This document shows positions 4,846-61,243 of a stretch of 64,000 bases of DNA, piece by piece. Origin of the DNA: Shigella virus Moo19; the sequence record MZ358387; one strand, given 5' to 3'. Under the pieces are notes generated by a model. The model ran no database searches and was not told the DNA's origin. It was given only the letters and a program-made list of their open reading frames with translations. The first letter of the stretch is position 1; every line of letters starts with the position of its first letter. The position numbers and the translations under genes are program-made.

Positions 4846-4989
4846 TGGGAACCAGAGAAGATGTTATTAAGCGTCGTGCTAAACAAGTTACTGCTCAATC
4901 AGTGCCTGTTACTGGTTATAGTAGAACATATAACAGTAAGCCTAAGCAGTATATCGTAACTTTCAATCATCCTTGTATTCAATAATAGT

Positions 4990-5627: not shown

Positions 5628-5912
5628 ATGAAAGTAATCACCTATCCTACTCATAAAATAGCACTCTACATGGGACAAAAAGTAGAAGTTCCATTATGGG
5701 TTAAATATTTAGCAGTACTTCCAATGATGTATGGTCATTCAAGTTCTGCACTAATTGGCTTCAGCCATAAACCCAAATTCACTAAGACTGGTATTTGGAA
5801 AATATCATCTCAGTATAAGAACACTAAGCAGGAACAAATAGGCATAGTCCGTAACTTTGCTCCTGCTAAAAATGAAATTGAAGCTACTCTAAGTGAGGTT
5901 CTATTACCATGA
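5628..5912 (+). CDS. Hypothetical protein (94 aa)
   Basis: ORF track. Confidence 0.4.
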   Translation: MKVITYPTHKIALYMGQKVEVPLWVKYLAVLPMMYGHSSSALIGFSHKPKFTKTGIWKISSQYKNTKQEQIGIVRNFAPAKNEIEATLSEVLLP

Positions 5913-6787: not shown

Positions 6788-7167
6788 AAGAAATATTCGT
6801 ATTCGGTTCTAATCTGGCTGGTGTACACGGTGCTGGTGCAGCTAAGACTGCATATAAGAAGCACGGTGCTCGTTGGGGTATGGGCGTAGGCCATTATGGT
6901 TGCAGCTATGCAATTCCAACTAAAGACCAGAACATCAAAACAATGGAGTTGGTTGATATCGCTGTATTTGTATCTGCCTTCATCCTGTATGCAGCAGCAC
7001 ACCCAGAGTGGGACTTCAAAGTAACACGAGTAGGTTGTGGGCTGGCTGGCCTGTCTGATAAAGACATGGCATTCATGTTCTTACCTGCAACAGGTAATGT
7101 CATGTTTGATGAAGCATGGAAACCTTATTTAGGTGATACCTATAACTACTGGGGTACATTCGAATGA
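6784..7167 (+). CDS. Gly-rich Rossmann-like motif protein (FVFGSNLAGVHGAGAAKTA...GCGLAGL); possible nucleotide-binding (SLOG/macro-like?)
   Basis: Motif only; family assignment uncertain. Confidence 0.35.
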   Translation: MKEIFVFGSNLAGVHGAGAAKTAYKKHGARWGMGVGHYGCSYAIPTKDQNIKTMELVDIAVFVSAFILYAAAHPEWDFKVTRVGCGLAGLSDKDMAFMFLPATGNVMFDEAWKPYLGDTYNYWGTFE

Positions 7168-7436
7168 CCTATGAAGAATTATGGGCTGCTCAAGTAAGAA
7201 GTAAGGCGAGAGCCTTTGCTCATGTCTACAGCACATTGCAGCATCTTATTAAAAGCAGAACCAAAGCTGGACATATACATGGTTACTACAAAGAAGATTG
7301 TATTCCCGATGGTGACTACCTATGGGATAAAAGAATCCGTCACGAGAGTGACATTATAAAAGTGAATATTGCTATTCATTCATACCCACCAAGGGGTAAT
7401 CGCTACCTATCTATTCACTTTTATACAAAGCGTTAG
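7164..7436 (+). CDS. Hypothetical protein (90 aa)
   Basis: ORF track. Confidence 0.4.
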   Translation: MTYEELWAAQVRSKARAFAHVYSTLQHLIKSRTKAGHIHGYYKEDCIPDGDYLWDKRIRHESDIIKVNIAIHSYPPRGNRYLSIHFYTKR

Positions 7437-7441
7437 GTAAT

Positions 7442-7460
7442 AGCTGCTCCGCAGCTTTTG
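7442..7460 (+). promoter_or_regulatory. Tri-loop hairpin agctgc-TCC-gcagct followed by TTTT; candidate vRNAP promoter hairpin or short terminator, 30 nt upstream of RNAP II genes
   Basis: Perfect 6-bp stem, TCC loop; same GC-TCC-GC core as 2596 and 3584. Confidence 0.35.
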
Positions 7461-7488
7461 GTCATTAATCATATTTAGGAGATATGCG

Positions 7489-8307
7489 ATGTACTCATCT
7501 ATTGAACATCAGAAGCAACTGGAAACTCTGTTTAACAAGAATCAACTAATTCCTCGTATGAGGAAAGAGTTCGAGGACTCCGAAGAAATCCAATTCACTA
7601 AGTATTTTGAGCATATTGGCATCGACCCCAAACTGGGTATTGATGCAATGGTGCAAATTGCTCTGCATAAACGTGCTGACATTCCTACTATGGTTGGCTC
7701 ACTCATGAGTCACAGTCAGGATGCTCAGTACATAGCAGACACTCTGCTTAAGATGGCAGAGCACGACTGCTTTGACTTCGACCCAAGTATCGATAAGTTC
7801 ATCGTCATCTATGAAATCAGTGATGATGTACAACTGGAACTGGAAGCATTCCAGTATCCACTGCCTATCGTCAGTGAACCGAGAGAGGTTAAAGATAACC
7901 GTGGCTCAGGTTACTGGAATACCAAAGGCAGTATCATCCTCAAGAAGAACCACCATGAAATGGATGTGTGTCTCGACCACATTAACCGTATGAACAATCA
8001 ACGACTCAGCATCAACTGGGACGTTGCCAAGTTCGTCAAAAACTCATGGGCTAACCTGGATAAACCTAAAGAAGGGGAATCCCGTCAGGACTTTCAGAAG
8101 CGTGTACGTGCATTCGAGAAATACGACCGTACAGCAAAAGACGTTATGGAACTGGTGACTAAAGAAGGTAACAACTTCTCACTTGACCATAAGTATGACA
8201 AGCGTGGACGCACCTACTCACAGGGCTACCACATTAACTATCAAGGTACTAGCTGGAATAAAGCTGTTATCGAGTTCGCTGATAAGGAGTTGGTAAACGA
8301 TGAGTAG
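7489..8307 (+). CDS. Phage RNA polymerase II small subunit (N4 gp15-like)
   Basis: 272 aa; lies upstream of a T7-like RNAP C-terminal-half homolog; N4-like organisation; strong RBS aggag. Confidence 0.55.
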   Translation: MYSSIEHQKQLETLFNKNQLIPRMRKEFEDSEEIQFTKYFEHIGIDPKLGIDAMVQIALHKRADIPTMVGSLMSHSQDAQYIADTLLKMAEHDCFDFDPSIDKFIVIYEISDDVQLELEAFQYPLPIVSEPREVKDNRGSGYWNTKGSIILKKNHHEMDVCLDHINRMNNQRLSINWDVAKFVKNSWANLDKPKEGESRQDFQKRVRAFEKYDRTAKDVMELVTKEGNNFSLDHKYDKRGRTYSQGYHINYQGTSWNKAVIEFADKELVNDE

Positions 8308-8587
8308 GAAAGAATTTAAAGCTATTGCTCAAACCAGTGGTGGTATGGGCACATTAGCACTAGGAGAAGACGGTACAGTACTGTACACGGCTTACGACGT
8401 ATTATCTGGCAAAACAGTAACAGTATGTCTGTTCTTTGATGTAAATACTTACATGTCACTGGAGAATGCTTTCTCAGATTTCAGCAATGTTATGCGTAAT
8501 CGTGACCAGAAAGCTGACTTAACTCCGGCTGACAAAGACTTCCAGGCAATCCTCAATGACCTGAAGAAACCAGGCAAACTTCATTAA
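8300..8587 (+). CDS. Hypothetical protein between the two RNAP II subunit genes
   Basis: ORF track. Confidence 0.4.
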   Translation: MSRKEFKAIAQTSGGMGTLALGEDGTVLYTAYDVLSGKTVTVCLFFDVNTYMSLENAFSDFSNVMRNRDQKADLTPADKDFQAILNDLKKPGKLH

Positions 8588-8636
8588 TTAACCCATATGC
8601 GTGTTCCATACAGGAACCAGATGCAGGAGTAATAAA

Positions 8637-9854
8637 ATGCAAACTTTTACCGCTAAACAGTACCTGGCTATCGATATCGCTAACAACTTTGGTCTGGATA
8701 AGAAGACCTGGGATGAGCGTTTGGCCTGGTTCGATGAGAACAAAGACAACCTCATGAACCAGTTAGAAGCAGCAGAGGAACCTGCTCTGTATTATGCAGG
8801 CGTTAAAGCCTATGAAGACATGCTGGCTGGTAAGCCTATTGGTTATACCATTGCACTGGATGCTACTGCATCTGGTCTGCAATTACTGGCATGTCTGACT
8901 GGTGACCGTAAGGCTGCTCAGTTGTGTAACGTAGTGAACTACTATGGTAGCGAAGGCAAGGCTCGTCGTAGCGATGCCTACACCGTTATCTACCGTACCA
9001 TGCTGGAAGCCGTAGGTCAGTCTTCTCGTGTTAAACGTGATGACTGTAAGCAGGCTGTAATGACTGCATTCTATGGCTCAGAAGCTAAGCCTAAAGAAGT
9101 GTTCGGTGAAGGTATTCTGTTGAAGACCTTTGAACACGTAATGGGTATCGAAGCACCTGGCCCGTGGGAACTGAACAAGTTCTATCTGCAATGTGGTAAC
9201 CCGGATGCAACCTCATATTTATGGGTTCTGCCGGATAACTTCCATTGTCAGATTAAGGTAATGGTTGACGAAGTACAGACCATTAACTTTATGAACAAGC
9301 CATATGACATCATTCGCAAAGTACAGGGTACTGAAGAGAAGACTCGTATGCTCTCTGCTAATACCACTCACTCAATTGATGGAATGGTAGTGCGTGAGAT
9401 GCTGCGTCGTTGTAACTATGATGCTGACCTGATTACCTATGTAAAACAGCTTTGCTATGGCGTACAGGAATCAAATGTATTCCTGCCAGAAAACGCTGAA
9501 ATGGTGCATGAGTTATGGAACCACTATGAACGTAGTGGTTTCCTGTCCATGCGTATCTGCGATTATCTGGATGCAGGCTCCATCGCTCTGGTTGACCGTC
9601 AGGTCATCCTTGAGATGCTGGAGACTCTGCCTAAGAAGCCATTCAAAGTACTGACTGTACATGACTGCTTCCGTTGCCATCCTAATTATGGCAATGACCT
9701 GCGTCGTCAATACAATCAGATTCTGTCTGACATTGCTAAATCCAACCTGCTGTCATTCATTCTGTCTCAGGTACTGGGACAAGAGTTCACTGCTGGTAAG
9801 CTGGACAATGACATGTGGAAAGATGTCTTAGACGCTGAGTACGCATTAAGCTAA
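8637..9854 (+). CDS. Phage RNA polymerase II large subunit, T7-like single-subunit RNAP catalytic half (N4 gp16-like)
   Basis: Motifs DATASGLQ (motif A-like), KQAVMTAFYGS (motif B-like), TVHDCF (motif C-like); ATG 8637 with aggag RBS (track ORF starts 8601). Confidence 0.75.
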   Translation: MQTFTAKQYLAIDIANNFGLDKKTWDERLAWFDENKDNLMNQLEAAEEPALYYAGVKAYEDMLAGKPIGYTIALDATASGLQLLACLTGDRKAAQLCNVVNYYGSEGKARRSDAYTVIYRTMLEAVGQSSRVKRDDCKQAVMTAFYGSEAKPKEVFGEGILLKTFEHVMGIEAPGPWELNKFYLQCGNPDATSYLWVLPDNFHCQIKVMVDEVQTINFMNKPYDIIRKVQGTEEKTRMLSANTTHSIDGMVVREMLRRCNYDADLITYVKQLCYGVQESNVFLPENAEMVHELWNHYERSGFLSMRICDYLDAGSIALVDRQVILEMLETLPKKPFKVLTVHDCFRCHPNYGNDLRRQYNQILSDIAKSNLLSFILSQVLGQEFTAGKLDNDMWKDVLDAEYALS

Positions 9855-9857
9855 TAT

Positions 9858-9895
9858 GAGCCTCATACCTTCGGGTATGGGGCTTATTTTTTTCG
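9858..9895 (+). terminator. Rho-independent terminator (catacc-ttcg-ggtatg extended, then ttattttttt)
   Basis: Read directly. Confidence 0.6.
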
Positions 9896-9911
9896 AATTG
9901 AGGACACAACT

Positions 9912-10733
9912 ATGCCTGAGTTAAAAGTTGCTTTTAACAAAGACACCTATGTAGCTACCGTACTGGATGCCAGTGGTAGCGTTCCGAGTGGTTCTGTGAA
10001 CGTAGGTACTTTCTTCCATCCTGATGAGACTTACCCTGATAGTTATGTTATCTATCATGGTGTTCGTGAACTCCTGTATAAGCGTTCTGAAGTTGACCCG
10101 GCACAACCAGGCTTCTGGCCTGAGAACATTACCAACATGCAAGCTGTTACCATCGATAACAAGGCTACTGCACGTCTGGTACTGAATACCTCCCTACCTC
10201 GTGTAGTATCTACCATCGAAGGTGGTAAGGTTACTCTGTCTGTTGTTGCTCTGGGTGGTAAGGCTCCTCTTAAATACAAGTGGGAGTTCCGTGCACCTAA
10301 TGCTTCAACCTGGACTGCTGTATCTGGGCAGACTACTGCTAATCTGGTTCTGGATAATATCGATGCTGATAAAGCAGGTGAGTATAAAGTCACCGTTACC
10401 GATGCTGCCGGAACCAGTGTAGATAGTACTGCTCTGGTAGCTGTGGGTGCTTATCCACCACCAGCACTGACGGGCATTAAGGCTACGCCTACTTCCCTGT
10501 CTCTGTCTGTAGCTACTGACGCTGCTGGTAAAACTGTAGCTCTGTCTGCTATCCCGACTGATGCTGAACTGGGTACATTGTCTATTAAGACTGCTCCAGA
10601 TTCTGCTCGTGCTACTGCTACTATTTCTGGTTCTACTCTGACTGTTAAACCAGTGGCTGCTGGTGCTGCAACTTCTGTTGTAGTAACCAACGGTAAAGTT
10701 GATGTGACTATCACTATCAACGTTGCAGCATAA
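9912..10733 (+). CDS. Ig-like domain protein; probable capsid decoration protein (N4 gp17-like)
   Basis: Ig-like sequence features (GEYKVTVTDAAG; Big_2-like C-terminal repeats); position after RNAP II genes. Confidence 0.5.
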   Translation: MPELKVAFNKDTYVATVLDASGSVPSGSVNVGTFFHPDETYPDSYVIYHGVRELLYKRSEVDPAQPGFWPENITNMQAVTIDNKATARLVLNTSLPRVVSTIEGGKVTLSVVALGGKAPLKYKWEFRAPNASTWTAVSGQTTANLVLDNIDADKAGEYKVTVTDAAGTSVDSTALVAVGAYPPPALTGIKATPTSLSLSVATDAAGKTVALSAIPTDAELGTLSIKTAPDSARATATISGSTLTVKPVAAGAATSVVVTNGKVDVTITINVAA

Positions 10734-10754
10734 GCTGATAGTTTTGTTTGGCTA

Positions 10755-10784
10755 AAGCCCTCCTTGTGAGGGCTTTCTTGTATC
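10755..10784 (+). terminator. Terminator-like hairpin (aaagccctc-cttgt-gagggcttt)
   Basis: Read directly; T tract weak. Confidence 0.5.
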
Positions 10785-10799
10785 TATAGGAGAGTAAAA

Positions 10800-11114
10800 G
10801 TGACTAACAAATTACGTGTATGGCATATCCCGCAAGTGCCAATGAAAGCATTCTTTGTAGAATGCGATAGCATTCAGGAAGCTGTTAAAATTCGTAGTGC
10901 ACTGGCAGATTACGACTTGTTCCAGTATGAGAACAATGTCAAAGGTGATTACTGTAACGCCAGCGGTATTCATATCTGGGATGAAACTCTGTCTGACCAA
11001 GACCTCATCGATATGGAACTAGACGACCGTTGGGTTGACTGGTTCTATGAAGATGAAAATGAATACTTCGATGACCCAGAAGAATATCTGGAATGGCTTG
11101 CTACGCAATCCTGA
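10800..11114 (+). CDS. Small acidic protein (C-terminal half D/E/W/Y-rich); candidate DNA-mimic-type host-interference protein
   Basis: ORF track (GTG start with aggag RBS); composition; bracketed by terminators. Confidence 0.45.
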   Translation: MTNKLRVWHIPQVPMKAFFVECDSIQEAVKIRSALADYDLFQYENNVKGDYCNASGIHIWDETLSDQDLIDMELDDRWVDWFYEDENEYFDDPEEYLEWLATQS

Positions 11115-11161
11115 TTGCTTTTTTGGGTTGAGCAAACCCGTAACATTCCTTTGATATCCTT

Positions 11162-11190
11162 GACCTCCCTAAATGGGAGGTCTTTTTTTG
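11162..11190 (+). terminator. Rho-independent terminator (gacctccc-taaat-gggaggtc + T7)
   Basis: Read directly. Confidence 0.75.
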
Positions 11191-11216
11191 GTTGTTATCT
11201 ACTTTGGAAAATAAAT

Positions 11217-11417
11217 ATGAAATTTTCTGATTTACTCTGGGCAATTCTATTCCTGTTACTTACTGCCTTTATTTATGGGGTAGTACTGCCTAATGCAGTA
11301 TCTGCTTCAGATAGTATAAGTGTAGTAATTGGATTGATTGTTTCTATTATGTGGCCTGTTATAGCAGGTCGTGTTGTTTACCTTATCGTTAAGAAACGGA
11401 AGAAGAAACATGCGTAA
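11217..11417 (+). CDS. Small membrane protein (66 aa, two hydrophobic segments, basic C-terminus)
   Basis: ORF track frame 11115-11417; ATG 11217. Confidence 0.4.
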   Translation: MKFSDLLWAILFLLLTAFIYGVVLPNAVSASDSISVVIGLIVSIMWPVIAGRVVYLIVKKRKKKHA

Positions 11418-12246
11418 ATTTATTATAGGTTGTTTACTGGCAATAGTTGCAATGGCTAGTCTTACTGGTTGTTATCAACGAGTAGAGCCAGGTAATGTAG
11501 GTATTATCGTTAACCGTTTGGGTGACGATAAGGGCGTTGACCAACAAGTAAAAGGCGTAGGCCGTTACTGGATTGGTTGGAATGAAGACCTGTATACGTT
11601 CCCGACATTCAAACAGATGAAAACCTACGACGATAAGTTTTACTTCCAACTGTCGGACGGTACTCAAATTGGCCATCAACTGGCTATCAGCTATAAGGTC
11701 AACCCGACCAAAGTAGCGACCATCTTCCAGACCTACCGTAAAGGTGTCGATGAAATCACTGACCAGGATTTACGTCAGCGTATTGCCGATATCCTGAACC
11801 GTCAGGGTAACCTGATTAACACTGACAAGTTCATTGACGGTGGTAAGTCACGTTTGCTGGATAGTGTAGCTGATGCAGTTAAAAAAGAGATGGAGCCAGT
11901 CGGTATCGACATTATGGCTATCTCCTGGGTAGGTGCACCGGAATACCCGGACAACGTGAAGCGTGCAATTAACGCGAAAGTTGAAGCTACCCAGAAAACC
12001 CTGCAACGTGAGCAAGAAGTGCAACAGCGTATCGCTGAAGCAAATATGGCTCGTGAGCAAGCCAAAGGTGAAGCTGATGCCGTAGTACTGAAAGCAAAAG
12101 CAGAAGCTGATGCTATTAAGCTGCGTGGTGATGCACTTCGTGAAAACCCTGGTGTAATGGAACTGGAAGCAATCAACAAGTGGAATGGTGTATTACCAAC
12201 CACAATGATTCCAGGTGCAGCCACACCATTTGTGCCTGTTAAATAA
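11410..12246 (+). CDS. SPFH/band-7 (prohibitin/HflC-like) lipoprotein
   Basis: Lipobox LTGC after signal peptide; SPFH-like core and C-terminal coiled-coil; ATG 11410 with ggaag RBS. Confidence 0.65.
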   Translation: MRKFIIGCLLAIVAMASLTGCYQRVEPGNVGIIVNRLGDDKGVDQQVKGVGRYWIGWNEDLYTFPTFKQMKTYDDKFYFQLSDGTQIGHQLAISYKVNPTKVATIFQTYRKGVDEITDQDLRQRIADILNRQGNLINTDKFIDGGKSRLLDSVADAVKKEMEPVGIDIMAISWVGAPEYPDNVKRAINAKVEATQKTLQREQEVQQRIAEANMAREQAKGEADAVVLKAKAEADAIKLRGDALRENPGVMELEAINKWNGVLPTTMIPGAATPFVPVK

Positions 12247-12252
12247 CAATAA

Positions 12253-12282
12253 AACCCCCAGACATTGCTGGGGGTTTTTACG
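12253..12282 (+). terminator. Rho-independent terminator (aaccccca-loop-tgggggtt + T tract)
   Basis: Read directly. Confidence 0.7.
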
Positions 12283-12295
12283 TCTGGAAAGTGTA

Positions 12296-12646
12296 ATGGA
12301 AAAGAACCGCAGGAAGACACTCATTGAGCGTCTGCTTGCCCGTATCAAGATAATGGATATGGGCTATACCGTTAATGGTCAGCCAAGCCTATGCCACATC
12401 TGGACTGGTTCCCACTCTGGGAATGGTCGAGGTGGTCAATATGGCAGGATTTCCGTGAATGGAGTTACCTCTGCTACACATATTGTGGCCTATACCCACT
12501 ATCACGGTTACATCCCTTGCAAAATGCAGGTAGACCATCTCTGTAATAACCGTCTGTGCTGTAACCCGGAACATCTCGAACTGGTGACTCACCAAGAGAA
12601 CCAGAGAAGAAGAGCTGCACGCCAAACTAAAGGTAAAAAGAAATGA
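12296..12646 (+). CDS. HNH homing endonuclease (HNH_3 type)
   Basis: Motifs CHIWTGS...GYI...VDHLCNNRLCCNPEHL...HQEN; ATG 12296 downstream of terminator. Confidence 0.7.
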   Translation: MEKNRRKTLIERLLARIKIMDMGYTVNGQPSLCHIWTGSHSGNGRGGQYGRISVNGVTSATHIVAYTHYHGYIPCKMQVDHLCNNRLCCNPEHLELVTHQENQRRRAARQTKGKKK

Positions 12647-12813
12647 TGAACTATTTAGGTGGTATTACTCTTGGTTGGCTTATTACCGCATTAGTTTTTG
12701 TATATCTGCCAGATGAGCATATTGCTAAAGCAAAAGCCATGAAAGAAACTTGCGAACAAAAACTTTCTCGTGAGCAGCAATGTGTAATGCAATTCGTACC
12801 GGAGAAAAAATGA
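12643..12813 (+). CDS. Small membrane protein (56 aa)
   Basis: Hand-translated; hydrophobic N-terminus; overlapping start/stop with neighbours. Confidence 0.3.
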   Translation: MMNYLGGITLGWLITALVFVYLPDEHIAKAKAMKETCEQKLSREQQCVMQFVPEKK

Positions 12814-13007
12814 CCTTAACTCGTACTCAACAGTCTACCCTGCGAATGATTGCAGGTGGTTTAACTCGTGTTGCACCGAATAACAAAACAGCCCTTGCTT
12901 TGAAAAAAGCAGGGCTGATTACATTCAATCCACCTTTCGGGTGGGTATGTACTAAAGCTGGTCTTGAAAAGAACCAGGAACTGATAGGTATGCGTAAGCC
13001 TACCTGA
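12810..13007 (+). CDS. Hypothetical protein (65 aa)
   Basis: ORF track frame 12780-13007; ATG 12810 overlaps upstream stop. Confidence 0.35.
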   Translation: MTLTRTQQSTLRMIAGGLTRVAPNNKTALALKKAGLITFNPPFGWVCTKAGLEKNQELIGMRKPT

Positions 13008-37484: not shown

Positions 37485-37566
37485 GGGGGAGTAGTCAAGC
37501 GGTCGAAGACGGCAGACTGTAAATCTGTTATCCCACACGGTAGTTCGAATCTACCCTCCCCCACCA
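37485..37566 (+). tRNA. tRNA-Tyr (anticodon GTA), 10-nt variable region, CCA encoded
   Basis: Hand-folded cloverleaf: acceptor GGGGGAG/CTCCCCC, T-loop TTCGAAT, anticodon loop CTGTAAA. Confidence 0.65.
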
Positions 37567-37567
37567 C

Positions 37568-37642
37568 GGTAAGTTAGCTAATTGGTGAAGCGGCTGACTG
37601 TTAATCAGTGATAGAGTGGTTCGAGTCCACTACTTACCGCCA
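37568..37642 (+). tRNA. tRNA-Asn (anticodon GTT), CCA encoded
   Basis: Hand-folded: acceptor GGTAAGT/ACTTACC, T-loop TTCGAGT, anticodon loop CTGTTAA. Confidence 0.7.
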
Positions 37643-37647
37643 CATTA

Positions 37648-37724
37648 CGGAGTTTAGCTCAGTCTGGTAGAGCATCTGCTTTGGGAGCAGAGGGTCGTAG
37701 GTTCGAGTCCTGCAATTCCGACCA
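37648..37724 (+). tRNA. tRNA-Pro (anticodon TGG), CCA encoded
   Basis: Hand-folded: acceptor CGGAGTT/AATTCCG, D-arm GCTCAGTCTGGTAGAGC, anticodon TGG. Confidence 0.7.
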
Positions 37725-37730
37725 AACAAT

Positions 37731-37806
37731 TAGGGGTTAGTTCAGTTGGTAGAACATCGGACTTTGATTCCGAATGTCACAGGTTCGAATCCTGTACCCC
37801 TTGCCA
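37731..37806 (+). tRNA. tRNA-Gln (anticodon TTG), CCA encoded; position 1-72 is T-T (unpaired)
   Basis: Hand-folded: D-arm GTTCAGTTGGTAGAAC, anticodon loop CTTTGAT, T-loop TTCGAAT. Confidence 0.6.
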
Positions 37807-38840: not shown

Positions 38841-38872
38841 AAAGCCCCTCTAATGAGGGGCTTTTTTATTTT
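38841..38872. terminator. Bidirectional terminator (aaagcccctc-taat-gaggggctt flanked by A-run and T-run) between convergent + and - transcription units
   Basis: Read directly; T/A tracts on both sides. Confidence 0.7.
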
Positions 38873-41800
38873 AGTTTACCAGATTCATCCAAGGGTTGAG
38901 GTTATGAGCACGTAAGCCCTGACCCAATCCGATAGAGTAATCCAGTCTACCATCAGCAGCAGCCGAGAACAGGTTATCCTGTAATGGCAGACCAACGTTA
39001 CCAAACATGGTAGGAGTTGGAGCCAGCATAGCCATAGCTGCATGAACAGGGTTATTACGAATCATGGACACTGCAACTTTAGTAGAACGAATCTTAAAGT
39101 TATAGAACCACATCAGACCCATGCTTTCCATGTAACCACGGAAACGACCCGGCAGACGGTCATAGTTAATGAACTCTTCGGTAACACGACCCAGAGCTTC
39201 TTCCTTACTCTTACCTTTACGCTTAGTCAGTTCATCATAGATGATTGCTTTAGCAATAAAGTCAGAGTACTCAACCGTCTTCTGGATACCCTGGAACAGA
39301 GCAGTATCCTTAGTGATAAGTGCATAACGACCAGCAGTTTGCAGCTTCTTAGGCAGCTTATCTGCTAAACGCTGCATGTACTCCTGTACCTTACCATCCG
39401 GGATTAACAGGTCATCACGAGAGATACCAGCATCAGCAATAGAAGAGAACTCACCAGCTTCCAGCAAAGGCCAGATACTCATACGCTTATAGCTATCATT
39501 GATGGACTGAATCTCAGCTTTCAGTTTACGAGCCTGGTTCGGATTAGTAGTTGCACGAAGTTCTGCTTCAGCATCAACCTGGCGAAGACGAGACTTCATA
39601 TACTGGTTAATCTCAGCAGTCTTCTGAGGGATACCTTTAGCAATATCCTTAACTGGAACACCACGGGCAACCATCTGATAGAGGTTAGCCAGGAAGTTCA
39701 CAGCAGGAACCACGAGAGACTTGACCACGATTAAGGTCTTAGCCTCACGTACAACCGTCTGAGTGATATTCTCACCCTGCATAAAGTATTTGTATGCACG
39801 GTTGCCAAATACGCCCAGCATTGCTTTCTTGAAGGTATCCAAAGTCTCAGGTGACCAACGAGAGTTACCAGTCCATACATCACCAACAGAAGCAGCACGA
39901 TAACCAAGTGCATCATTCAACATGTCACGACGTACCCACAGTTCACCATTACCAAACAGTGACTCAGCTTTCTGACGAGTTTCTGCATTCATCAGACGCA
40001 TAGCATCAGCAGTAACTGGGTCAAGTTTAGAACCAAGAAGGTTAATGTACTGGCTCTTATTGCTGGTAGAATCTGCCATGTCCTTCTCGTACATAGCGTG
40101 AAGATTTTCAATCAGAGCATCGTTAAACTTCTGGGCTTTAGCTTCTTCTACCTGACGACCTCGCCATACACCAATTGCTTTAGCAAGGTTATCCTCACCA
40201 GCAATGTGAGTCAGCATGTTAGGGTCAATAGAGTGCTCATAAGCAACCACACGACCATTGCCATCATAGATAGGCATCAGTGGTTCATTACCACGTTCAC
40301 CCTTCGCCAGAGCTTTGGTGATACGGTCAACGGAAGGCTTGTCAGTAATACGACCAGCAACCATTGTTCCCATTGTGAAGCCAGTACCAACATCCACACC
40401 ACCAGCAGTATTACGAACGTTCTGGAGAATACCCTGTGAGTATGGAGCACGAGCAGCAACCGGGCTGAAGTAGTAACCACGACTACGAGTACGTTCACCA
40501 GAGCTACCCTGATAACCAGCAATACGAGTGAATGACTTCTCACTCAGTTCGTTAAACTGGCTGTCTTCTGCAACAATCAGGTTAACACCCTGCTTAGTCT
40601 CAGAAGGAATGTAGCCTTTGTAGTGGTTCAAACGAGCACGGTCATCATTCTGTGCTTTACGTTTCTCTTCCACACGCTGGCCTACCAGATAGGAAGTGAC
40701 AAAGTCCATACCTTCGGTTTCAGTCTGAGCCAGGGAAGCTAATGCCTCACGGTCAGCCTGACTCATTGCTTCGATGGCATACAGAGTAATCAGCTTGTCT
40801 AAGGTGTCCACATCAACGGTAGATTTAACGCTGGTACGCTCACCTAACAGACGGGAGATTGCCTCAGCATTACGCAGCAGGTTGTTACCGACAGTACCAT
40901 TAATCATGTACTGAGCCAGTTGCTTAGACTTACGGTTAATCAAAGGCCAGTTACGTCCTGCCTGATTCTGGAGGTCAGCTTCCAGCTTATTAACCAGCTT
41001 ATCCATTTCTTTCTGTGAAGACAGCAGGTCACGAATTTCACCCAGACTCATGGTGTCACGCAGTACAGCAAGGTCAGTTTTACCCATACCAGTGTGCATA
41101 GCTTTCCACTCTGCATCAGTCAGCTTACGGCTGAACTTAGAAGCAATAGTGGTAGGCAGATGCTCACGGAATTGCTGACGGTCAGCCTGTACCTGAGAGC
41201 GAACAGCTTTAATCATGTCATAGACAGAAGCATTCGACTTAGTACGACCTACGATGTCATTAACCAGGTCATAGAAAGGTTGCCATGCTTTTCCCTGGTT
41301 CATTGCAGCCATAACACCCTGTGCAACTTTCTCACCGTTCTTCTCAGTAGCAATAGCAGCTACCAATTGAGCAGCATGAGCAGTTGCCTTAACCAGTGGG
41401 TTCTTAGCATTAGCAGCAACATCACGAGCAGTATCCAGTGTGGCATCAGCCAGACGTTCTACACCATCAACAATATATTGGTTAGCACGGTCAATCATAT
41501 TCCCAGTTGGGGTAGCAACAGAGTCATAGAAGGACTGAGCATTCAGGCTGGATTCCATAATAGTTTCTGCCAGAGCATCAATACCTTCCTGAACGTTAGT
41601 TGCTTTGGTATCACCAGCAACACGCTTGTTCAGGCTATCCATTGCAGCTACGCCAATGTTAGTCAGCATTGCATCAATAGTATTACCGGATGCTTTATCT
41701 GCTTTCATAACAGGCATGTCAGTCAGTACGTTACGTACCTCTTCGCTTACCATTGCCAGACCAACAAAGGTAGGCAGTAAGGAAGAACGACCCTGAGCAT

Positions 41801-44800
41801 CAAACTCAATATTGTTAGCACCCATCAACGTATCGAACTTCTGTTGAGCATAGTAACGGTCAGCAGGGTTAGTGCTGTTCGGGTCTGCCATGAAGTCTTC
41901 TACTTTCAGGTTCTTGGTAACGTGAGTGTAATACTCCTGAGCACGAGCCAGAGCAGCAGGATGAATTGCAGCCTCAGTTGCTAGTGCAGCAACAATGTTG
42001 GTGAACAGACGACGTTCTTGCATGTTCATAGTAAAACCATGCCCCTGAACATCACGAGTTACCTTAACTGCATTCACTACTGCGTCAGAGAATTTACCCT
42101 TACGCATATGTTGCTGTACCGGGTCATTACCCAGGTAGTTCGTAATGAGACGGTCAAAGGTTTGACCCAGTGAAGTAAGACGGTCATTGTTGCCATAAGC
42201 AGTGCTATGGAACAGGGTAGCCTCAGCAGTAACCGGAGCAACCGGAGGCTGTGAACGCATCACTACAGCAGAGTTAAACAGCAGACCGGAGAACATATCT
42301 TCACCGTAAGCAGGGGCTTTCTTACGACCAAAAATGAGGCGTTTAATTGCTTCATAAACATCTTTAACCATCCTGGTAAGAGCAGTGGTTTTCTTCTGCT
42401 TCTTAATCAGTTCATGGTTGGTTAAGCCCCATGCCATGTACTCATTCAGTGCAGCAGCTTTAGCCATTGCTGGGTCAATGAAACCGTTGGACAGATGACC
42501 ATTGATAGTATCCAGTGCATCAGCGTAAGCCTCACGCATAGCCGGAGTATCTTTGGATACATCCAGACTACGGAACTGTTCCATCAGATTCTCGATGTTC
42601 TGTACAGCTTCATTGGTCTGGCCTTGATAGTGGTCAAGTACAGTCTCAAAAGTAGAAGCATGAACCAGTTCATGAATCAAGGTTTCCATTGATGGGCTAA
42701 CCAGGTAGACAGTCTTATCTGCAAAGTTAGTCCAACCATAGATATTACCTGCATTTGCAGCTTCAATATCTTCTGGAGCAGGACGCTCTACGTTACGTTC
42801 CATTGCATACTGGTCAATCTGGTTCACGTTACCGTAAACAACCTTGTAGCCTTTAGCAGCCAGTGACTTCTGAATCTCATTCAGTACAGCAGCCTGTTCA
42901 ACAGGAAGGTTGGACTCTTTAGCCAGTTTGTTAATAGCAGTCTGAGACAGCACACGAACACCAGACTTCAGAGCACGGCCTACAGTATCAAACTTATTAG
43001 TATCGGCTACTGGAGTCTTCTCAGCTTTACGAGCCTCTTTACGAGCCTGCAATTCAGCATCGAATAGCTCATTCAGTTTTGCTACTTGCTGGTCAACAGT
43101 CAGACCATCCAGAGAGATATTACCGTTGTTCACATAAGGGGAACCAACAGCAGCCATCTGGTCAACAGTAGTCTGTACCTGGTTCATTACCTTGTGACGG
43201 ATATCGACACCCAGAGCAATGTTACGCAGGTTACGCTCAATAAGATTAACACCTGCTTTCTCAATCATATCAATCTTATACTGCCTGTCACCATCAACAC
43301 GACTGATATGAGAAAGTTGTTCAAAATCCAAAGCAGAACGGGCAATACTATCAATTGCTTCATCTGATAACTTATTGAAATCTACATTTTTTACAAACTT
43401 AGAGAAGGAGTCATACACATTCTTGATAGGGTTACCCTGCCATGAAGTGTATACAGCTTCGTTAGCCTTACGGCTTGCATCAGTGATGTCATTGATACCG
43501 ATGTTCATACCATCAAAGATTTTGAGAGTATTTTTCGGTGCACCTTTCATAATAGAAAGGGTCTGCATCATCATGCCGTCACCAGTACCAATCGTCATGA
43601 AAGGAATACCAGCAACACCAGCTTGTGACGGTGCATAGATGCTCATTGGCACACGCATACGGTCATCAAAGTTGGTAGCCAGAACCTGGTTAGCAACATC
43701 AGTATTCTCAGAACCAGCAATGTAGAAAGTCTGGGAACCAGTCTCAATCATTGGAGCTAAGTCAGACAGTGAAGCCTGAATATCGTTAAGCTCTTTCTGA
43801 GTTAAGAAGTCACCCTTCTTCCAGTTAGGGTCTTTTTCTTTTTCTGCCAGCTTCTCCTGGACACGTTGCTGGAACATGTCTTGCAGAACCAGAGACTGAA
43901 TCTGGGTAGCTTTCTGAAGCTGTTCAGTGGAGTGCATCAGCCCTTCACCAACAGTATTCTGAATACCCTGTCTCATTGGTTCAACGAAAAAGTGCAGCAT
44001 GTTCTCTTGCAGAGACTTCAGTTGCTCACCTTTGACAGTGAACTTCTGAGGGTCAATCTTGCCAGACATAGCAGTACCAGTGTCTTCAAGAGACAGTTTA
44101 CCTTTACGCATAACTGGAACAGTACCAGTCAATGCTTTCATGTCTTCAATGAAACGACCGAGCATAGCCTCAGCATCGGCCTCAGATGCTGCCTGCTTGC
44201 CGAACATTGCCATAGCCGGGGAAATGTCCGGGTTCTGTGCACGGGCTTGCAGAACGTCGCTGAAGCGTTCGTAGATGGCATCAGTAATTGCACTCACCAT
44301 CTTGCCTGCAATACCACGAGCACCGGAACCATAAATGGTAATGGTCAGTGGGTTCTTGGCAATGCCACGTTTCAGTTCGAGGTTGCCTTCTTCATTGATG
44401 TTATAGTCAGGAATGAACAAGTCCATCAGAGAGGACAGATGATTCATCTGAGTATTAACAGCCGGGTTATTGGCATAGGTATTTCGCAGGTTAGTCAGTG
44501 CAGCTTTCAGACCGTTAGTGGATGCTTCGTACAGGTCAACGCTATCGTCAATAGAACGATGTTCGTTCATCGTCTTACCAGCACGACCAAAGAATAGACC
44601 ACCCTTAGCAGTATTCTGTACCCATTCTTTGGTGAACTTACCACCAGTCATCAGCATCATTGCGTTAATCGGACCGTTGGTTACACCATCAGCCTCAACG
44701 TACAGTGGAGTGTTGAACTTAGACTTGTCTTCAGCATTCAGGTAACGGGCATACTCCATCAGAGCCATGAGAGCTACGAAGGATTTATCACCACCCAATG

Positions 44801-47800
44801 CAGTATTCAGAATCTCAACAGAGTTATCTGGCAGGTTCCCAGTTTTATCGAAATCAACCATCATATCGACAGCAGGTTTCAAATTGCCTTCCAGTGCAGC
44901 AGTCAGTTTTGCTGACATTGCCTCACGAGACATGTTGTGAACCTTGATGCCCAATGCCTGAGCCAAGCCAACCTGGAAATCAGAGAAGGTCTGTGAGTTT
45001 TCATTGGACAGGTCAATAGTAGAAAACGTAGGCAGAATAGCTTCACGAACCAGCTTACTGGACTGAGGATTATTCTTACCAAGCATCTGCATACGACCAA
45101 CACGAGTCATGTTGTAGGCATAGTGGATTGGAGTTTCCAGTCCGTTTTCCTGTGCACGAGTTTGCTCTACCACACTAAACAAGGAATCATAAGCCATAGC
45201 TACTGACAGGTTTTTACCTTCCAGTGACTTAGCAGTATTCACATTCAGCAGTTCAGGATTAAGCGTACCAGCACCCATCAATTCCAGAATCTTGTCACGA
45301 CCCATAGCCTCATAGAAGTTAACCATAGGTTCATGAATACGGAACTCAGTAGCCTGTTCTGCTTTCAGAGCAGCTTTCTGTTCCGGGGTATTCTTAACAG
45401 CAGGGTTGCGTAACTGAGTCTGAGCCACAGAAGGTACGTCGTCACCGAAGTACATTTTCTCTTCTGGTTCTACCAACACAGCTTCTTCAATTGCTGTAGG
45501 GAATTTATTGATAGGGTCATTGTCTGCCAGCTTATCAATGGTATACAGACCAACAGTCTTAGTGGAGTCTGGGTCAATTTCAGAGACATCTAGCATAGTC
45601 TCAGTAACTTCACCTGCTTCAATAAGAGCAGACAGAATCTCAGTTGCCATAGCAACAGGGATACCTTTGGTATAACCCAGTGGTGCATTAGGGTTACGGT
45701 CAAAGCCCCAGTAAGATTCAATTTTCTGAGCCAGTGAGTTAGTAGCTTCAACGAGAGTCTGAGCATTCTCAAACATCTCAACTACACCTTCCGGTAACAG
45801 AGCCTGTTCAATACCAGTAATAGCAGCCACGTCTTTAGCATCTTTAACGGCAGCATTCTGAGTAGCAGTCAGTCGCCATTGCAGACCAGCAAGTACGGCA
45901 GTTTCAAGCAGAGAATCGTTGAACTTAAAGCTATTGCCATCTGGTTCAACAATATTCAGCAGCTTACCACCAACCCAACGGTTAGCTTCAGTGCCCTCAG
46001 CAAAACGCTTACCTACGTTCTTGTTAGACAGGAACTTAGCCAGTCGGTCATTCAGAATGGATTTAATGTTTTCACCCGTGTTCATCAGGTCTTTATAACG
46101 ACCAGATACATCAGGGGTAAGAGCAGTATTCTCACTCTGAGTAAACGTTTCGAAACGTGCATTAGAAGACAGAGCCTGACCAATATCTTTCATTGGAGAC
46201 TCGGAACCAGTGGTACGAGACTTAGGTTCAGCAGGTAATGAGTAAGCAATCTTGAGGTAATTTTTTACCCCAGGCTGGCTGACATCAGTACTCCCAACCA
46301 AATCAGGATAAGCAGCGTCAATACCACTACGAGTGGATTCCACTTCATTAGTAGTTTCCTCAGTATTTTCAGTAACATCCTCGATGCTACCCTCATTGAT
46401 GAGGGTAGCATCCTTTGCCTTTTCGGATTGAGGCTTAGTTACTTTCTCTGGTTCTGCCTTAGACTCAGTAAAAGGAGCACTATTTTCTACCGTCGATTCC
46501 CTATTAGGAGTTACAGTAGGTGCAGCCTCCTGAGTTTGTGCAGGAGTTTCGTCAACTTGATTCACTGGTTCATTAGTCTGTTGGGATTGAGCAGCGTCAA
46601 GATTGCCCTGACGGAACTCTTTAACCACCTGGGCAGCAGGCTTGTCCAGACGTGAATCCAATGAGGTAACATTGATATGAGAAACGTTAAGCTCCGGGTA
46701 AGCCGTAGCAAGTGCATTAGCAATATCAGCTACGGTTTTGGCTTCCAGTCCTACTTGCTGGGCAAACTTAACCGACTTGGTATCGTAAGGATTAACACCG
46801 AGTCCAGTACGACTTCTTACCCATTCACGGGAAGGGGTGAGGGCTTGGTAATGGACAGACTTATTCTTATCCGCATTCCCAGAAATCAGATGTTCATTCA
46901 ACGCTCCGACCTTGTTCTGCATGTGCTGGGCGAACTGCATAAAGTCGCTCAAATAAGCGGAAGCCAAATCGAAGTTACCAGAGTTATACGCAGACCGAAT
47001 GCGTTTAGCATGTTGCAACGCAGAGTACTGGCCTTCATTAGAACGAGACTCGTCGGTTTTAATCTGTTTACCCACAATGTCTTGAGGCCGTAAACCAAGC
47101 TGTTCAGCTTTGGTATCAAACTCACGTGCTCCCTGTAATAGAGCAGCAGCGGATTGCAGGGCAGCACGTTGACGATTGTTCAACGTAATCTTGCCTTCAC
47201 TCGCATGTTTCAGAACCATGTTCACTGAATCAGCGTCCAGTACTTCCGGGCTTACGTCAGCAGCCATTGCTACGTTGTTAGCCTGATTCTGGTCTGCTAC
47301 ATCTTCGGTCACATTCAGATTACCTTGTTCAGCTTGTTCCTGAATCATGGAATGAATGGCACGGAATGCACGAAGTACCTTTGGAGTATTCTGGATGTTA
47401 GCCATCAGACCCGAATACTGGTCGAGCACAGCATTAGCAGGACTATCTTTAGGCAGATTGTTCAGTGCAGCAGGGTCACGGTTAACGAAGTCTTCCATCT
47501 GCATAACCATGTCGTACATATTGGCAGCAGCTTCCATCATCTGGTTCGGGTCTTCAGTAGTGTTAACTACATCAGCCAGTTTCTGGATTACCTGAACTCG
47601 GTCAGTGGAACCGTTAACAGCTTCCTGAACCACAGGAGAAGCATCAGCAAATTCTTCCGGGTTAATACGGGTAGCATTAACCAAATCACTTGCATACTGG
47701 TGTGCAGCAGCCTTCTCTTCAGGAGAGATGTCCATTGCTTCAACAGCATCAGCCATAGTTGCCTGAGCAGTATCTGCTTGTGCAGCAGCTTCCTGAGCAG

Positions 47801-49310: not shown

Positions 49311-49372
49311 AGCTTGTTTCCTGTTCAAACTTATATCTATAAGAGAACTCACTGTACATTAAGTGAGGGTAA

Positions 49373-56111: not shown

Positions 56112-57317
56112 TTACAGAGGTGCAACAGCTTTCATTACGGCAATACGTTCTGGACGTTTAACCAGGATACCGTAGTACCACTTGATGCTGGAGAAGCCAG
56201 TCTCACCGTAAGGGTCATTACGGTCAGCAGTTTCTTTACCAGGCATCTTGGTCATAACATTGAACTTAACAGACTTACCGTCAGTCTGGAAGCCAATAGT
56301 GGTGAAGGAATCATCACCAACAACCAGTACTGGGTAGACATCGTAGTGCTCAGTACCGTTAACGGTAGAAGTACGATAACCAGGGTTAGCATCAGTAGCT
56401 GCTGCACCTGCACCTGCCCAGTGGAGCATCTCTGGAACCTGGATGATACGGAACTTATCGATAGTACCGATTTCACCGTTCATCAGAGTACCAGCATCAC
56501 CGTAGTGCTGAATCTCGATGAATGCTTTGTTACCGAACAGGTCTTTCATTGCCTTCAGGTCAGGAACCAGTTCAGAACCAACGTACATTACACGAGTACC
56601 ACCAATCACTTTGGTATCAACCAGACGGGAACCAGTGATGATAGTAGTTTGAGTAGGAGTACGGTTATCGGTCAGGATGGCATCCAGACGCATCAGGTTT
56701 TTATAGGTGATAACAGAAGGGGTAGAACCTTCACCAGTGATGGTTGCATCAGAGGTAGCAGCGCCTGCATACAGTACTGTACCAGCAGCAGCCAGAAGGT
56801 CTTTCTGGAGAACAGCTTCGGTAATCTGTACTGCACCGTTCATCAGTTCACGGGACAGGTGTTCTTTCAGTTGGTCATCAGAGTCGAAGTCCAGAGATTC
56901 CTGGGTGAACTCGTAGAAGAAACCGAACTTATGGATGGAACCTTCACGAGACAGACGGGTGAAGCCAACACGGTTAACACGACCACCGTTCTCGGTCAGC
57001 AGAGGCAGCTTGGAGGTAATAGTACCGATGTCTTTACTTGAACCATACAGGTTACCGTTTACGATGTGTGCACCGTTAGCATCGATACCCTGGTCGTTAA
57101 TGTTACGGTCATCCAGCAGAGGAACATATTCGTAAACCTTAATGGTTTTACCCATGTTCTTCGGCATGTTAGTAACGGAAGCCAGGGGCATAAAGTATTG
57201 GTCTTTACGAGCCTGGATAATAGCTTTCTTGAGCCAGTAGAAGGTATTCATCTGGTCAGAGCCAGCACCATCGATACTGGATTTCTGACCGTCAATTGGA
57301 GCGTTATAGTTCAACAT
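56112..57317 (-). CDS. Major capsid protein (N4 gp56 position, 401 aa)
   Basis: Size and synteny (scaffold-like acidic protein upstream, portal further upstream); terminator immediately downstream; no motif verification. Confidence 0.5.
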
Positions 57318-58960: not shown

Positions 58961-61243
58961 TTAAAGGTTCATGCCGGGACTCAATGCTGGGTCACGACTT
59001 GGGTCAAAATACTGGGAACCAATGGAAAGAGATGGGTCTTGGGGTGCAAGAGCATCACGTTCTAATTCATTGTTCACCTGGTTGTTACCATCGGTAATTG
59101 CATTATATCCGATAGCAGCAGATATGTTAGGGGAAGTTTCGCCTTCTTTTACTGGTTGTGTCAATGCTTTAGTTACTTGAAGGTTCTGGTTACCCTGAGA
59201 TTGTGCTTTTTGTTTTTCCATTTCACGAGCATGTTTAGTGCCGGATTCCTGTTCCAGATAATCCAGATTAGTCATATCTTTCTTAGCATCTTCTGCACGA
59301 ACCTTAGCTTCGTTCAATGCAATCTCAGATTGCAGCTTTTGGTTTTCCAGTTGAGCTTTCTGAATAGCCAGTTGCTTAAGTTGTTCTTCCATTGGGTCTG
59401 GTTCTGGTTTCCAGGTACGTAACTCGTGTGCCAGTTCAGGCATACGTTTAAGTTCTGCAATACGTGCAACCAGTTTAAGAGTAACTTGCTGGTCAACCGT
59501 GTTACCAATAGTCTGAACCATGAAGCCCAGGTCTTGGGATTTCTGGTTATCGACTTCAGCAGTGTTGATATCTACTTCAATATCAAAGTTGCCTTTCAGG
59601 TCTTCACGGTTAATAGTCACGTATTCCTCATTGGTAATACGAACGACTTCTGTCTCAGAAAGGAATACGGCATTCATTGCACAAATCTTTGTACCAATGT
59701 CAGCCATACCTTTTGCCAGACGACGAAGGATTGCCATCTCACGTTTAGAAGCTGCATCCAGTGCACCACGAATACCAGCAGCAACATCACCATAAGCTGA
59801 ACCAGTAACACCACCTGCAAATGCCTTTACCCCGGTAAGTGCTTCTGCTTCTTGGTTCTGCATCTGAGACATTACAATTGCAGACTGAGGTAACTCAGGG
59901 AATTTATGTTCGATAATTGCCTGAGAAGGATTACCCGTCTGGGGATTGTATTCATAGTCCAGACCATCTTCGAAACGACGACGGTTAAGAGTATCCAGCA
60001 TACCTTTAGGGTAAGCACGTTGACCATTGGCACTACGACCAAGTAAGTCAATCATGCCACGCATGGTAGCACCCAGGATTTTCTGGTTATCACCTAACAG
60101 TTCTGCATCTGCTTCGCCATACAATTCACGTTTACGTGGCATATATGGAACCAGTACGAATGGTAGCTTACCATCTGGGTATGGATTCTCTTCCATACGG
60201 ATAAGAGTTGTACCAATCCAGGTAGCTACAATTGGCTTAAGTTCACCGTCACCGTTAGTATCCCAGAATCCCCAGTATTCATATGCAATGACACGTTTAC
60301 GCATAGCATCACGGAACTGGAAGTCACCAGGAGTTTTACTCTCATGGTCTGGGTCAGTAAGTGGGGAAGAACTTTCCCAATCAATTTTATCCAGATTGTG
60401 ATAACGGTCTGGGGTCTTTAACAAATCTGCTTTACAGGTTTCGAATGAGACAACTGCAAACAGTGCTCGGTCGAGGTCACCATTACAGGACGGGTCGATA
60501 ACAACGTTGTTTGGGTCGAGCATTTCAACCGTTGGCCTGTTAACCACAGCCTTCTCGACTTCAACTTCCGTAGTACCCGTCTGGATAGCATAAGTAGCTT
60601 CACCCGTTTCATTGAAATAGTTAACAGCTTCCTTAACGTCATCTGCTACTTGTTCCTCATATCCACGGGGGTTTTGTGCCTGAAGGTCTAAGGCTTGTTG
60701 CAGAATCTGAACTTGTTCTTCTGTTTCAACAGGGTACATCTGGAAGACAGGGGCGTCCTGTTTAACCTTAACTACCTTGCGTTCCCAACCAACACGAGCA
60801 ATGCCAGTACCGTCATCGCAGACAGAGTGAACGTAATCATCCACCAGCTTCACACGGTTAAGCTGAGTACGGAACTGGTAATTAAGTACAAGTTCGTTCT
60901 GACGTGCAGCTTGTTCATCTTCCCAGGTAACCGGGGTAAGTTTGAATAACTTAGGGGATGACAGAAACGGCTCAGACAATGGGGCATAACGCCACTCTGC
61001 CTGACGTCGAACCAGTTTAGGCTGGACCTGGGAACGGCCTTTTACCTTTGGGGGCTTAGCCGAACCTTCTGCTTTCATGAGGTCATTCCATTTCTGGATT
61101 TCTTTCATGATTGCATCATGGGCTGGTTTACCTGCTTCAAGGTCAGCCTTCAGTGTCTGAATACTTGGCTCTTTCTTCCAGTTAGTCAGCTTATCTGATT
61201 GCCCTGGGTCTGGAAGAGGAGTCATAGAATCTTGATGTTCCAT
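58961..61243 (-). CDS. Portal protein (N4 gp59 position, 760 aa)
   Basis: Size and synteny only. Confidence 0.5.

Follow-up and report, generated by a model that had tools for sequence, protein, structure and literature searches.

gp28 of Shigella virus Moo19, an Ig-like capsid decoration protein encoded between terminator-like hairpins after the RNA polymerase II genes

Positions 9912..10733 on the plus strand of Shigella virus Moo19 (sequence record MZ358387; the window analysed here is the whole stretch of 64,000 nucleotides) hold the gene for gp28, a capsid decoration protein and orthologue of gp17 of phage N4. The gene runs from ATG to TAA, specifies 273 amino acids plus the stop codon and carries a ribosome-binding site that can be read from the sequence (GAGGA, 9900..9904, plus strand, 7 nucleotides upstream of the ATG). 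A first-pass annotation, made from the letters alone, had called a 273-residue open reading frame (ORF) at this place; it is present exactly so on the plus strand, and its product is identical to a known protein. A PDB sequence search pairs 273 of 273 residues with chain J of entry 9d7z, described as 'Ig-like domain-containing protein' (Ig, immunoglobulin), and the NCBI/UniRef record 'Hoc-like head decoration [Shigella virus Moo19]' (P0001) agrees at 100% identity and 100% coverage. PHROG 2973, likewise named 'Hoc-like head decoration', matches residues 1-273 (E = 3e-73), and in the annotated phage collection the best DNA match is ~82% identical (phage Jgk1) and the best protein match 65%. The gene also encloses two ORFs on the minus strand (10055-10393 and 10451-10720), which were rejected as shadows of the verified coding sequence. 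gp28 is already known, and structurally characterised for exactly this phage (published 2024); the additions made here are incremental and comprise the architecture of the family, a conserved hairpin-bracketed cassette and a negative test for Big_2.

The location of the protein in the virion comes from published work. The capsid model of Moo19 is deposited as entry 9D7Z (Table S3, Subramanian et al., Sci Adv 2024, PMC11654681), and the Foldseek library carries it under the title 'Shigella flexneri bacteriophage Moo19 Icosahedral Reconstruction'. The same paper names the protein gp28 (28 kDa, 273 residues), includes it in a table of proteins identified by mass spectrometry in CsCl-purified virions of Moo19 and provides an atomic model on the T=9 capsid that covers residues 1-183 of 273. 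Absence from purified virions, which the first-pass annotation had named as the observation to set against its proposal, is contradicted by these published data. The authors describe the gp28 fold as Ig-like, resembling T4 Hoc, and assign the protein to quasi-sixfold axes, where they expect it to form a Hoc-like trimer spike (PMC11654681). The deposited model holds three gp28 chains (J-L) and nine major-capsid-protein chains; gp28 is a component of purified virions, with three copies per asymmetric unit bound to nine capsid-protein chains and residues 1-183 ordered. Joined to the gene by exact sequence identity, this literature evidence places gp28 physically on the capsid shell of the virion.

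The N4 orthologue, gp17, has reportedly been known since 2008. A phmmer search relates it (chain 9e99_J) to gp28 over residues 1-272 with E = 6.6e-90. Its structure, solved at 2.45 Å, shows three monomers per asymmetric unit lying flat on the shell: domain I (DI) occupies every quasi-3-fold axis, domain II (DII) rests on the P-domain of the capsid protein, and domain III (DIII) is flexible, makes minimal capsid contact and points in different ways in the three copies, for which its authors suggest a non-structural role (PMC11768535). N4 gp17 is reportedly not needed for infectivity and protects under DNase I and EDTA stress (review PMC7602432); the mutant data behind this stability phenotype are unpublished (N4 atlas paper). 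The Moo19 and N4 papers (PMC11654681 and PMC11768535) disagree about homologous proteins that are 58% identical and that each contribute three chains per asymmetric unit, and one of the two descriptions of the binding site probably needs correcting.

We built an AlphaFold2 model of full-length gp28 on 23 homologues, with a mean predicted local distance difference test (pLDDT) score of 91. The model comprises three domains with boundaries near residues 85 and 181, a mixed N-terminal domain being followed by two all-beta domains. DI (residues 1-85; 9912..10166, plus strand) is the conserved N-terminal domain and is formed by three strands, a helix at 44-56 and further strands. DII (residues 86-180; 10167..10451, plus strand) is a beta sandwich similar to Ig_3 and I-set domains; it is the most variable of the three and is modelled in 9D7Z (to about residue 181-183). 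DIII (from about residue 181 to 273; 10452..10730, plus strand) is a distal all-beta domain that follows a PPP linker and is flexible and unresolved in the Moo19 map; in the full-length model it has seven or eight strands and a pLDDT of 91-96. A model of DIII on its own reached a pLDDT of 55, too poor for a fold search, and was left unused. Foldseek searches with the gp28 model return 9d7z_J/K at template modelling (TM) scores of 0.74-0.81 and N4 9e99_K at E = 3.5e-39, and the remaining matches are tandem I-set Ig arrays, for example titin and IgLONs. A PDB sequence search shows that DII resembles the T5 decoration protein pb10 (5lxk, E = 7e-7) and titin.

Profile searches against Pfam define the Ig-like character of gp28 more closely. 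With gathering thresholds of 30 bits for Ig_3, 23.7 bits for I-set and 22.8 bits for Big_2 (PF02368), the Ig_3 match at residues 96-163 (E = 3e-6) scores 28.0 bits in whole gp28 and 29.4 bits in DII alone, just short of its cut-off, and I-set scores 17.8 bits and 20.6 bits, respectively (E = 5e-4), also under its cut-off; the precomputed annotation assigns PF13927 to gp28 and most homologues. PF02368 is unmatched in whole gp28 (E <= 1), in the three isolated domains (E <= 10) and in 13 DIII sequences (E <= 10), and the same profile finds its positive controls, the orthologues from Achromobacter phage phiAxp-3 (111 bits) and Stenotrophomonas phage Philippe (68 bits). As isolated domains, DI and DIII have no Pfam match. 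When a DIII profile is run against the PDB, the best match from outside the family, at a marginal E = 0.04, is 2l04, which is the lambda tail protein V C-terminal domain; further tail tube proteins of gpV type follow (E = 0.24-0.75), and each of these alignments spans the whole domain. We take the lambda gpV domain in 2l04 to be of Big_2 type. A direct hhalign comparison of DIII with the second Big_2 domain of phiAxp-3 is weak (E = 0.009, probability 4.6%). The first-pass description of the protein as 'Ig-like/Big_2-like' therefore holds in its first half, by the sub-threshold Ig_3 match, AlphaFold2 and Foldseek, and is not confirmed in its second, PF02368 being unmatched.

The family architecture was examined in six phages from several lineages of the Schitoviridae: Moo19, N4, Klebsiella VLCpiP4a, Achromobacter phiAxp-3, Erwinia Ea9-2 and Stenotrophomonas Philippe. 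The shortest orthologue, that of VLCpiP4a (83 residues), is DI only; Philippe (177 residues) has DI and one Big_2 domain (E = 6e-19), phiAxp-3 (257 residues) has DI and two Big_2 domains (E = 2.5e-32), and Moo19, Ea9-2 and N4 (273-279 residues) share the DI, DII and DIII arrangement. All 17 invariant columns of the six-phage alignment lie within residues 1-81. Among 120 closer homologues, mean identity to gp28 is 0.75 for DI, 0.53 for DII and 0.69 for DIII, and DIII has 35 positions that are invariant in 11 sequences. Structure-based matches extend the family to Klebsiella phage KP8 (171 residues), Pseudomonas phage Zuri and Achromobacter phage JWAlpha. Most simply, the family can be read as a conserved N-terminal domain of ~85 residues joined to zero to two swappable Ig-type modules; a fixed anchor with exchangeable outward modules agrees with the N4 contact map (PMC11768535). 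Because the invariant columns fall in DI, because a DI-only form exists and because DI of N4 gp17 sits at the quasi-3-fold axes, DI is most likely the capsid anchor.

The names given to orthologues in GenBank vary widely, from fibritin (wac), neck whiskers protein, structural protein and hypothetical protein to kappa-carrageenase precursor (phiAxp-3) and RNA polymerase (Pseudomonas phage Zuri). One homologue (P0048; 277 residues, 62% identical) is filed as 'hypothetical protein EI543_13605 [Enterococcus faecium]' on a 2.76-Mb contig; a head protein of N4-like coliphages would be out of place in the chromosome assembly of a Gram-positive bacterium, and the record suggests contamination or misassembly.

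Upstream of gp28 lie the genes of an N4-type heterodimeric RNA polymerase (RNAP) II, both on the plus strand: the small subunit at 7489-8307 and the large subunit, with a Pfam RNA_pol match, at 8601-9854. The two subunit ORFs match PHROG 2166 (E = 8e-117) and PHROG 2051 (E = 3e-172). Between them, a 95-residue ORF (8300-8587, plus strand) has no PHROG match; a small ORF is found between the RNAP II genes in VLCpiP4a, phiAxp-3, Ea9-2 and Philippe also, and none is found there in N4. Downstream, on the same strand, follow a superinfection-exclusion gene similar to P22 gp17 (10800-11114; PF17420, E = 3e-46), a small membrane protein gene (11115-11417) and a gene for an SPFH/Band-7 lipoprotein (11371-12246). 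This trio is conserved and corresponds to N4 gp18-gp20, with functions that are likely to concern the cell envelope. An HNH endonuclease ORF comes next (12215-12646, plus strand; PHROG 1872, E = 6e-46); its upstream-extended GTG start overlaps the end of the lipoprotein gene, and the true start is probably further downstream.

The order of small RNAP II subunit, large RNAP II subunit, decoration protein, exclusion protein, membrane protein and SPFH lipoprotein is that of N4 gp15-gp20. The first-pass annotation had proposed an equivalent of N4 gp17 beside the RNAP II genes, a proposal borne out by the 58% identity, by the shared gene order and by the chain in 9D7Z. The decoration gene directly follows the gene for the large RNAP II subunit in N4, VLCpiP4a, phiAxp-3 and Philippe, and three small ORFs intervene in Ea9-2.

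The structural genes are, as had also been claimed, far away: the genes for capsid, portal and virion RNAP occupy the minus strand at ~38.9-61.2 kb. The virion RNAP gene spans 38871-49352, and the major capsid protein, the binding partner of gp28, is encoded at 56112..57317 (401 residues; match to 9d7z_A over 1-401, 902 bits), 45 kb from the gp28 gene and on the opposite strand. The portal gene (58961-61243, minus strand) has 9d80_A as its full-length top match, and for capsid and portal proteins alike the Moo19 PDB chains (9d7z_A, 9d80_A) rank ahead of N4 proteins, so that the window is the genome of Moo19 or of an isolate indistinguishable from it. Near 38 kb the GC skew changes sign. Four tRNA genes (Tyr-GTA, Asn-GTT, Pro-TGG and Gln-TTG; 37485-37806, plus strand) lie where coding strand and GC skew switch, a cluster situated between the plus-strand replication genes and the minus-strand genes for the virion RNAP and structural proteins.

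The gp28 gene is bracketed by two hairpins on the plus strand. The upstream one (9856..9893) is terminator-like, with a 14-pair stem, a TTCG loop and a following T-run (predicted -22.9 kcal/mol); it begins 2 nucleotides past the stop codon of the gene for the large RNAP II subunit, and its end lies 18 nucleotides before the gp28 ATG. The downstream one (10754..10776) has a 9-pair stem and lies 21 nucleotides past the gp28 stop codon. A terminator scan of 7000-13000 yields 15 sites against 3.9 expected. Both positions are conserved: a hairpin with a T-run directly follows the large-subunit gene in five of the five other phages, with differing stem sequences, and a hairpin follows the decoration gene in all five, that after N4 gp17 being nearly identical to its Moo19 counterpart. 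In Ea9-2, a further hairpin lies immediately upstream of the decoration gene, and in the comparison locus L001 the flanking hairpins fall at about 4922-4956 and about 5862-5884.

The early (RNAP II) transcription unit probably ends at the upstream hairpin. N4 expresses its RNAP II genes early, and its middle promoters are minimal AT-rich elements extending from -7 to +2 (PMC4496689); the first-pass placement of gp28 'among middle genes' is more exactly given as the first gene after RNAP II genes that are of early class in N4. The decoration gene most likely forms an insulated single-gene unit at the early/middle boundary. Its place straight after the early RNAP II genes, with a terminator-like hairpin on either side, makes it probable that it is transcribed alone as the first middle-class transcript, and not together with the late structural genes of the opposite strand. 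We found no transcriptomic timing of the decoration gene in N4-like phages in the literature, and both the LUZ7 Drc paper and the N4 RNAP review are silent on the matter. It is doubtful that the hairpin-insulated cassette after the RNAP II genes is functional rather than historical, whether through a decoration protein made before the capsid for a second, non-structural job or through a hot-spot at which Ig modules are exchanged on a fixed DI to suit different environments.

Taking these observations together, we hold with high confidence that the ORF is Moo19 gp28, an accessory (decoration or cement) protein on the outer face of the HK97-fold, T=9 capsid and orthologous to N4 gp17, acting in the following way. 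As 9d7z has three gp28 and nine capsid-protein chains per asymmetric unit, a head would carry ~180 copies of gp28, with fewer at the portal vertex. Judging from the N4 orthologue and the pattern of conservation, DI would dock at the quasi-3-fold junctions between capsomers, DII would rest on a neighbouring capsid protein, at the P-domain, and DIII, on its proline linker, would wave in the solvent. The most likely function would then be to strengthen the pressurised capsid where capsomers meet, without being essential, and the exposed DIII may be free for a second role in surface interaction.

Several points weigh against this reading. According to the Moo19 authors, gp28 may not stabilise the capsid at all (PMC11654681), and the evidence for stability concerns N4 gp17, from unpublished data quoted second-hand, and not Moo19 gp28. 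The quasi-sixfold, trimer-spike site reported for Moo19 (PMC11654681) clashes with the flat, monomeric, quasi-3-fold arrangement of N4 gp17 (PMC11768535), and because of this mismatch we infer the exact Moo19 binding geometry. A sigma-70 promoter scan, finally, has no site upstream of the gp28 gene (5 sites in the region against 11.7 expected), and a host-RNAP promoter is therefore not proposed.

An alternative is that gp28 is mainly an adhesin: the head would serve to display its Ig-like domains, and DIII in particular, for binding to glycans of mucus, of host surfaces or of other bacteria, any stabilisation being incidental. This follows the model proposed for T4 Hoc, and a review lists gp17 among the Ig-like decorations thought to mediate host adhesion (PMC7602432); the first-pass annotation, too, had noted that Ig-like decoration proteins can mediate adhesion to surfaces or mucus. 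An exposed, flexible DIII with little capsid contact, and the non-structural role suggested for it in N4, would suit such a function, but the arrangement of DI and DII, flat against the shell and spanning capsomers, is that of a cement protein (PMC11768535). The variation within the family cuts both ways. Distal modules are swapped (none, one Big_2, two Big_2, or Ig_3 plus DIII) on a constant DI, as expected for a part that faces the environment, and DII is the least conserved domain; however, DIII is well conserved in close relatives (mean identity 0.69), which is unexpected of a fast-evolving ligand-binding surface, and the DI-only form, which has nothing to display, is retained in Klebsiella phages. 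We consider a mainly adhesive gp28 unlikely.

The second alternative is a Hoc-like spike, in which gp28 monomers converge at hexamer centres (the quasi-sixfold axes) and their C-terminal domains form a projecting trimer. It is stated explicitly in the Moo19 paper (PMC11654681), and is in keeping with the label 'Hoc-like head decoration' in PHROG and many GenBank records and with the presence of three Ig-type domains, as in Hoc. In the 58%-identical N4 gp17, however, the molecules are flat monomers with DI at quasi-3-fold axes and with differing DIII directions (PMC11768535), and Hoc itself is a monomer at the quasi-6-fold axis (review PMC7602432). Neither the 16 PDB sequence matches (E <= 1) nor the top 50 Foldseek matches include T4 Hoc (3SHS), whose capsid-binding domain is C-terminal (N4 atlas paper), whereas the likely anchor of gp28 is N-terminal. 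We regard such a spike as improbable. That the ORF encodes a non-virion middle protein merely with Ig-like repeats, such as a secreted or cell-surface infection factor, is scarcely credible: its place among non-structural genes, beside those for superinfection exclusion and membrane or lipoproteins and far from the structural module, would fit, but virion proteomics and the cryo-electron microscopy model exclude the idea, the protein being identical to a chain in the capsid reconstruction and found in purified virions by mass spectrometry, and its translation, judged by eye and with no predictor, has no N-terminal hydrophobic stretch typical of a signal peptide.

With gp28 read as a decoration protein of the capsid, the practical value of the analysis is a sound annotation for a family that is variously mislabelled in GenBank. 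Because one conserved N-terminal domain carries Ig modules of variable number and type, gp17 and gp28 form a natural display scaffold, and they offer a simple system in which to ask whether the exposed Ig domains of phages serve to stabilise capsids or to mediate adhesion.

Comparison with known systems places gp28 as follows. Moo19 gp28 in 9D7Z (chains J-L) is the same protein, and residues 184-273, which the published map lacks, are predicted here as all-beta. N4 gp17 (the '32 kDa protein'; 9E99/9LBZ/9LD7; NC_008720 EPNV4_gp17) is 58% identical over its full length (tblastn) and shares the DI-DII-DIII order, the position after gp15/gp16, the flanking hairpins, the three copies per asymmetric unit and the T=9 capsid. 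It differs in its length of 279 residues, with a 6-residue insertion in DII, the most diverged domain, and in having adjacent RNAP II genes where Moo19 has the extra 95-residue ORF between them. The phiAxp-3, Philippe and VLCpiP4a orthologues have the same DI and gene position, and distally two, one and no Big_2 domains, respectively. T4 Hoc (3SHS) is likewise a non-essential outer head protein of tandem Ig-like domains, and 'Hoc-like' is a functional label: Hoc has no detectable sequence relationship to gp28 (PDB search, E <= 1), and it is anchored by its C terminus and projects outward (N4 atlas paper) at hexamer centres (review PMC7602432), whereas gp17-type proteins have a likely N-terminal anchor and lie flat at quasi-3-fold and quasi-2-fold junctions. 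T5 pb10 (5LXK) and related Ig decoration domains (8ZVI) are similar to DII, with shared 'GG.xP..Y.W' and 'AG.YKVTVTD' motifs; the similarity is limited to DII, and pb10 binds hexamer centres (review PMC7602432) and has a different capsid-binding domain.

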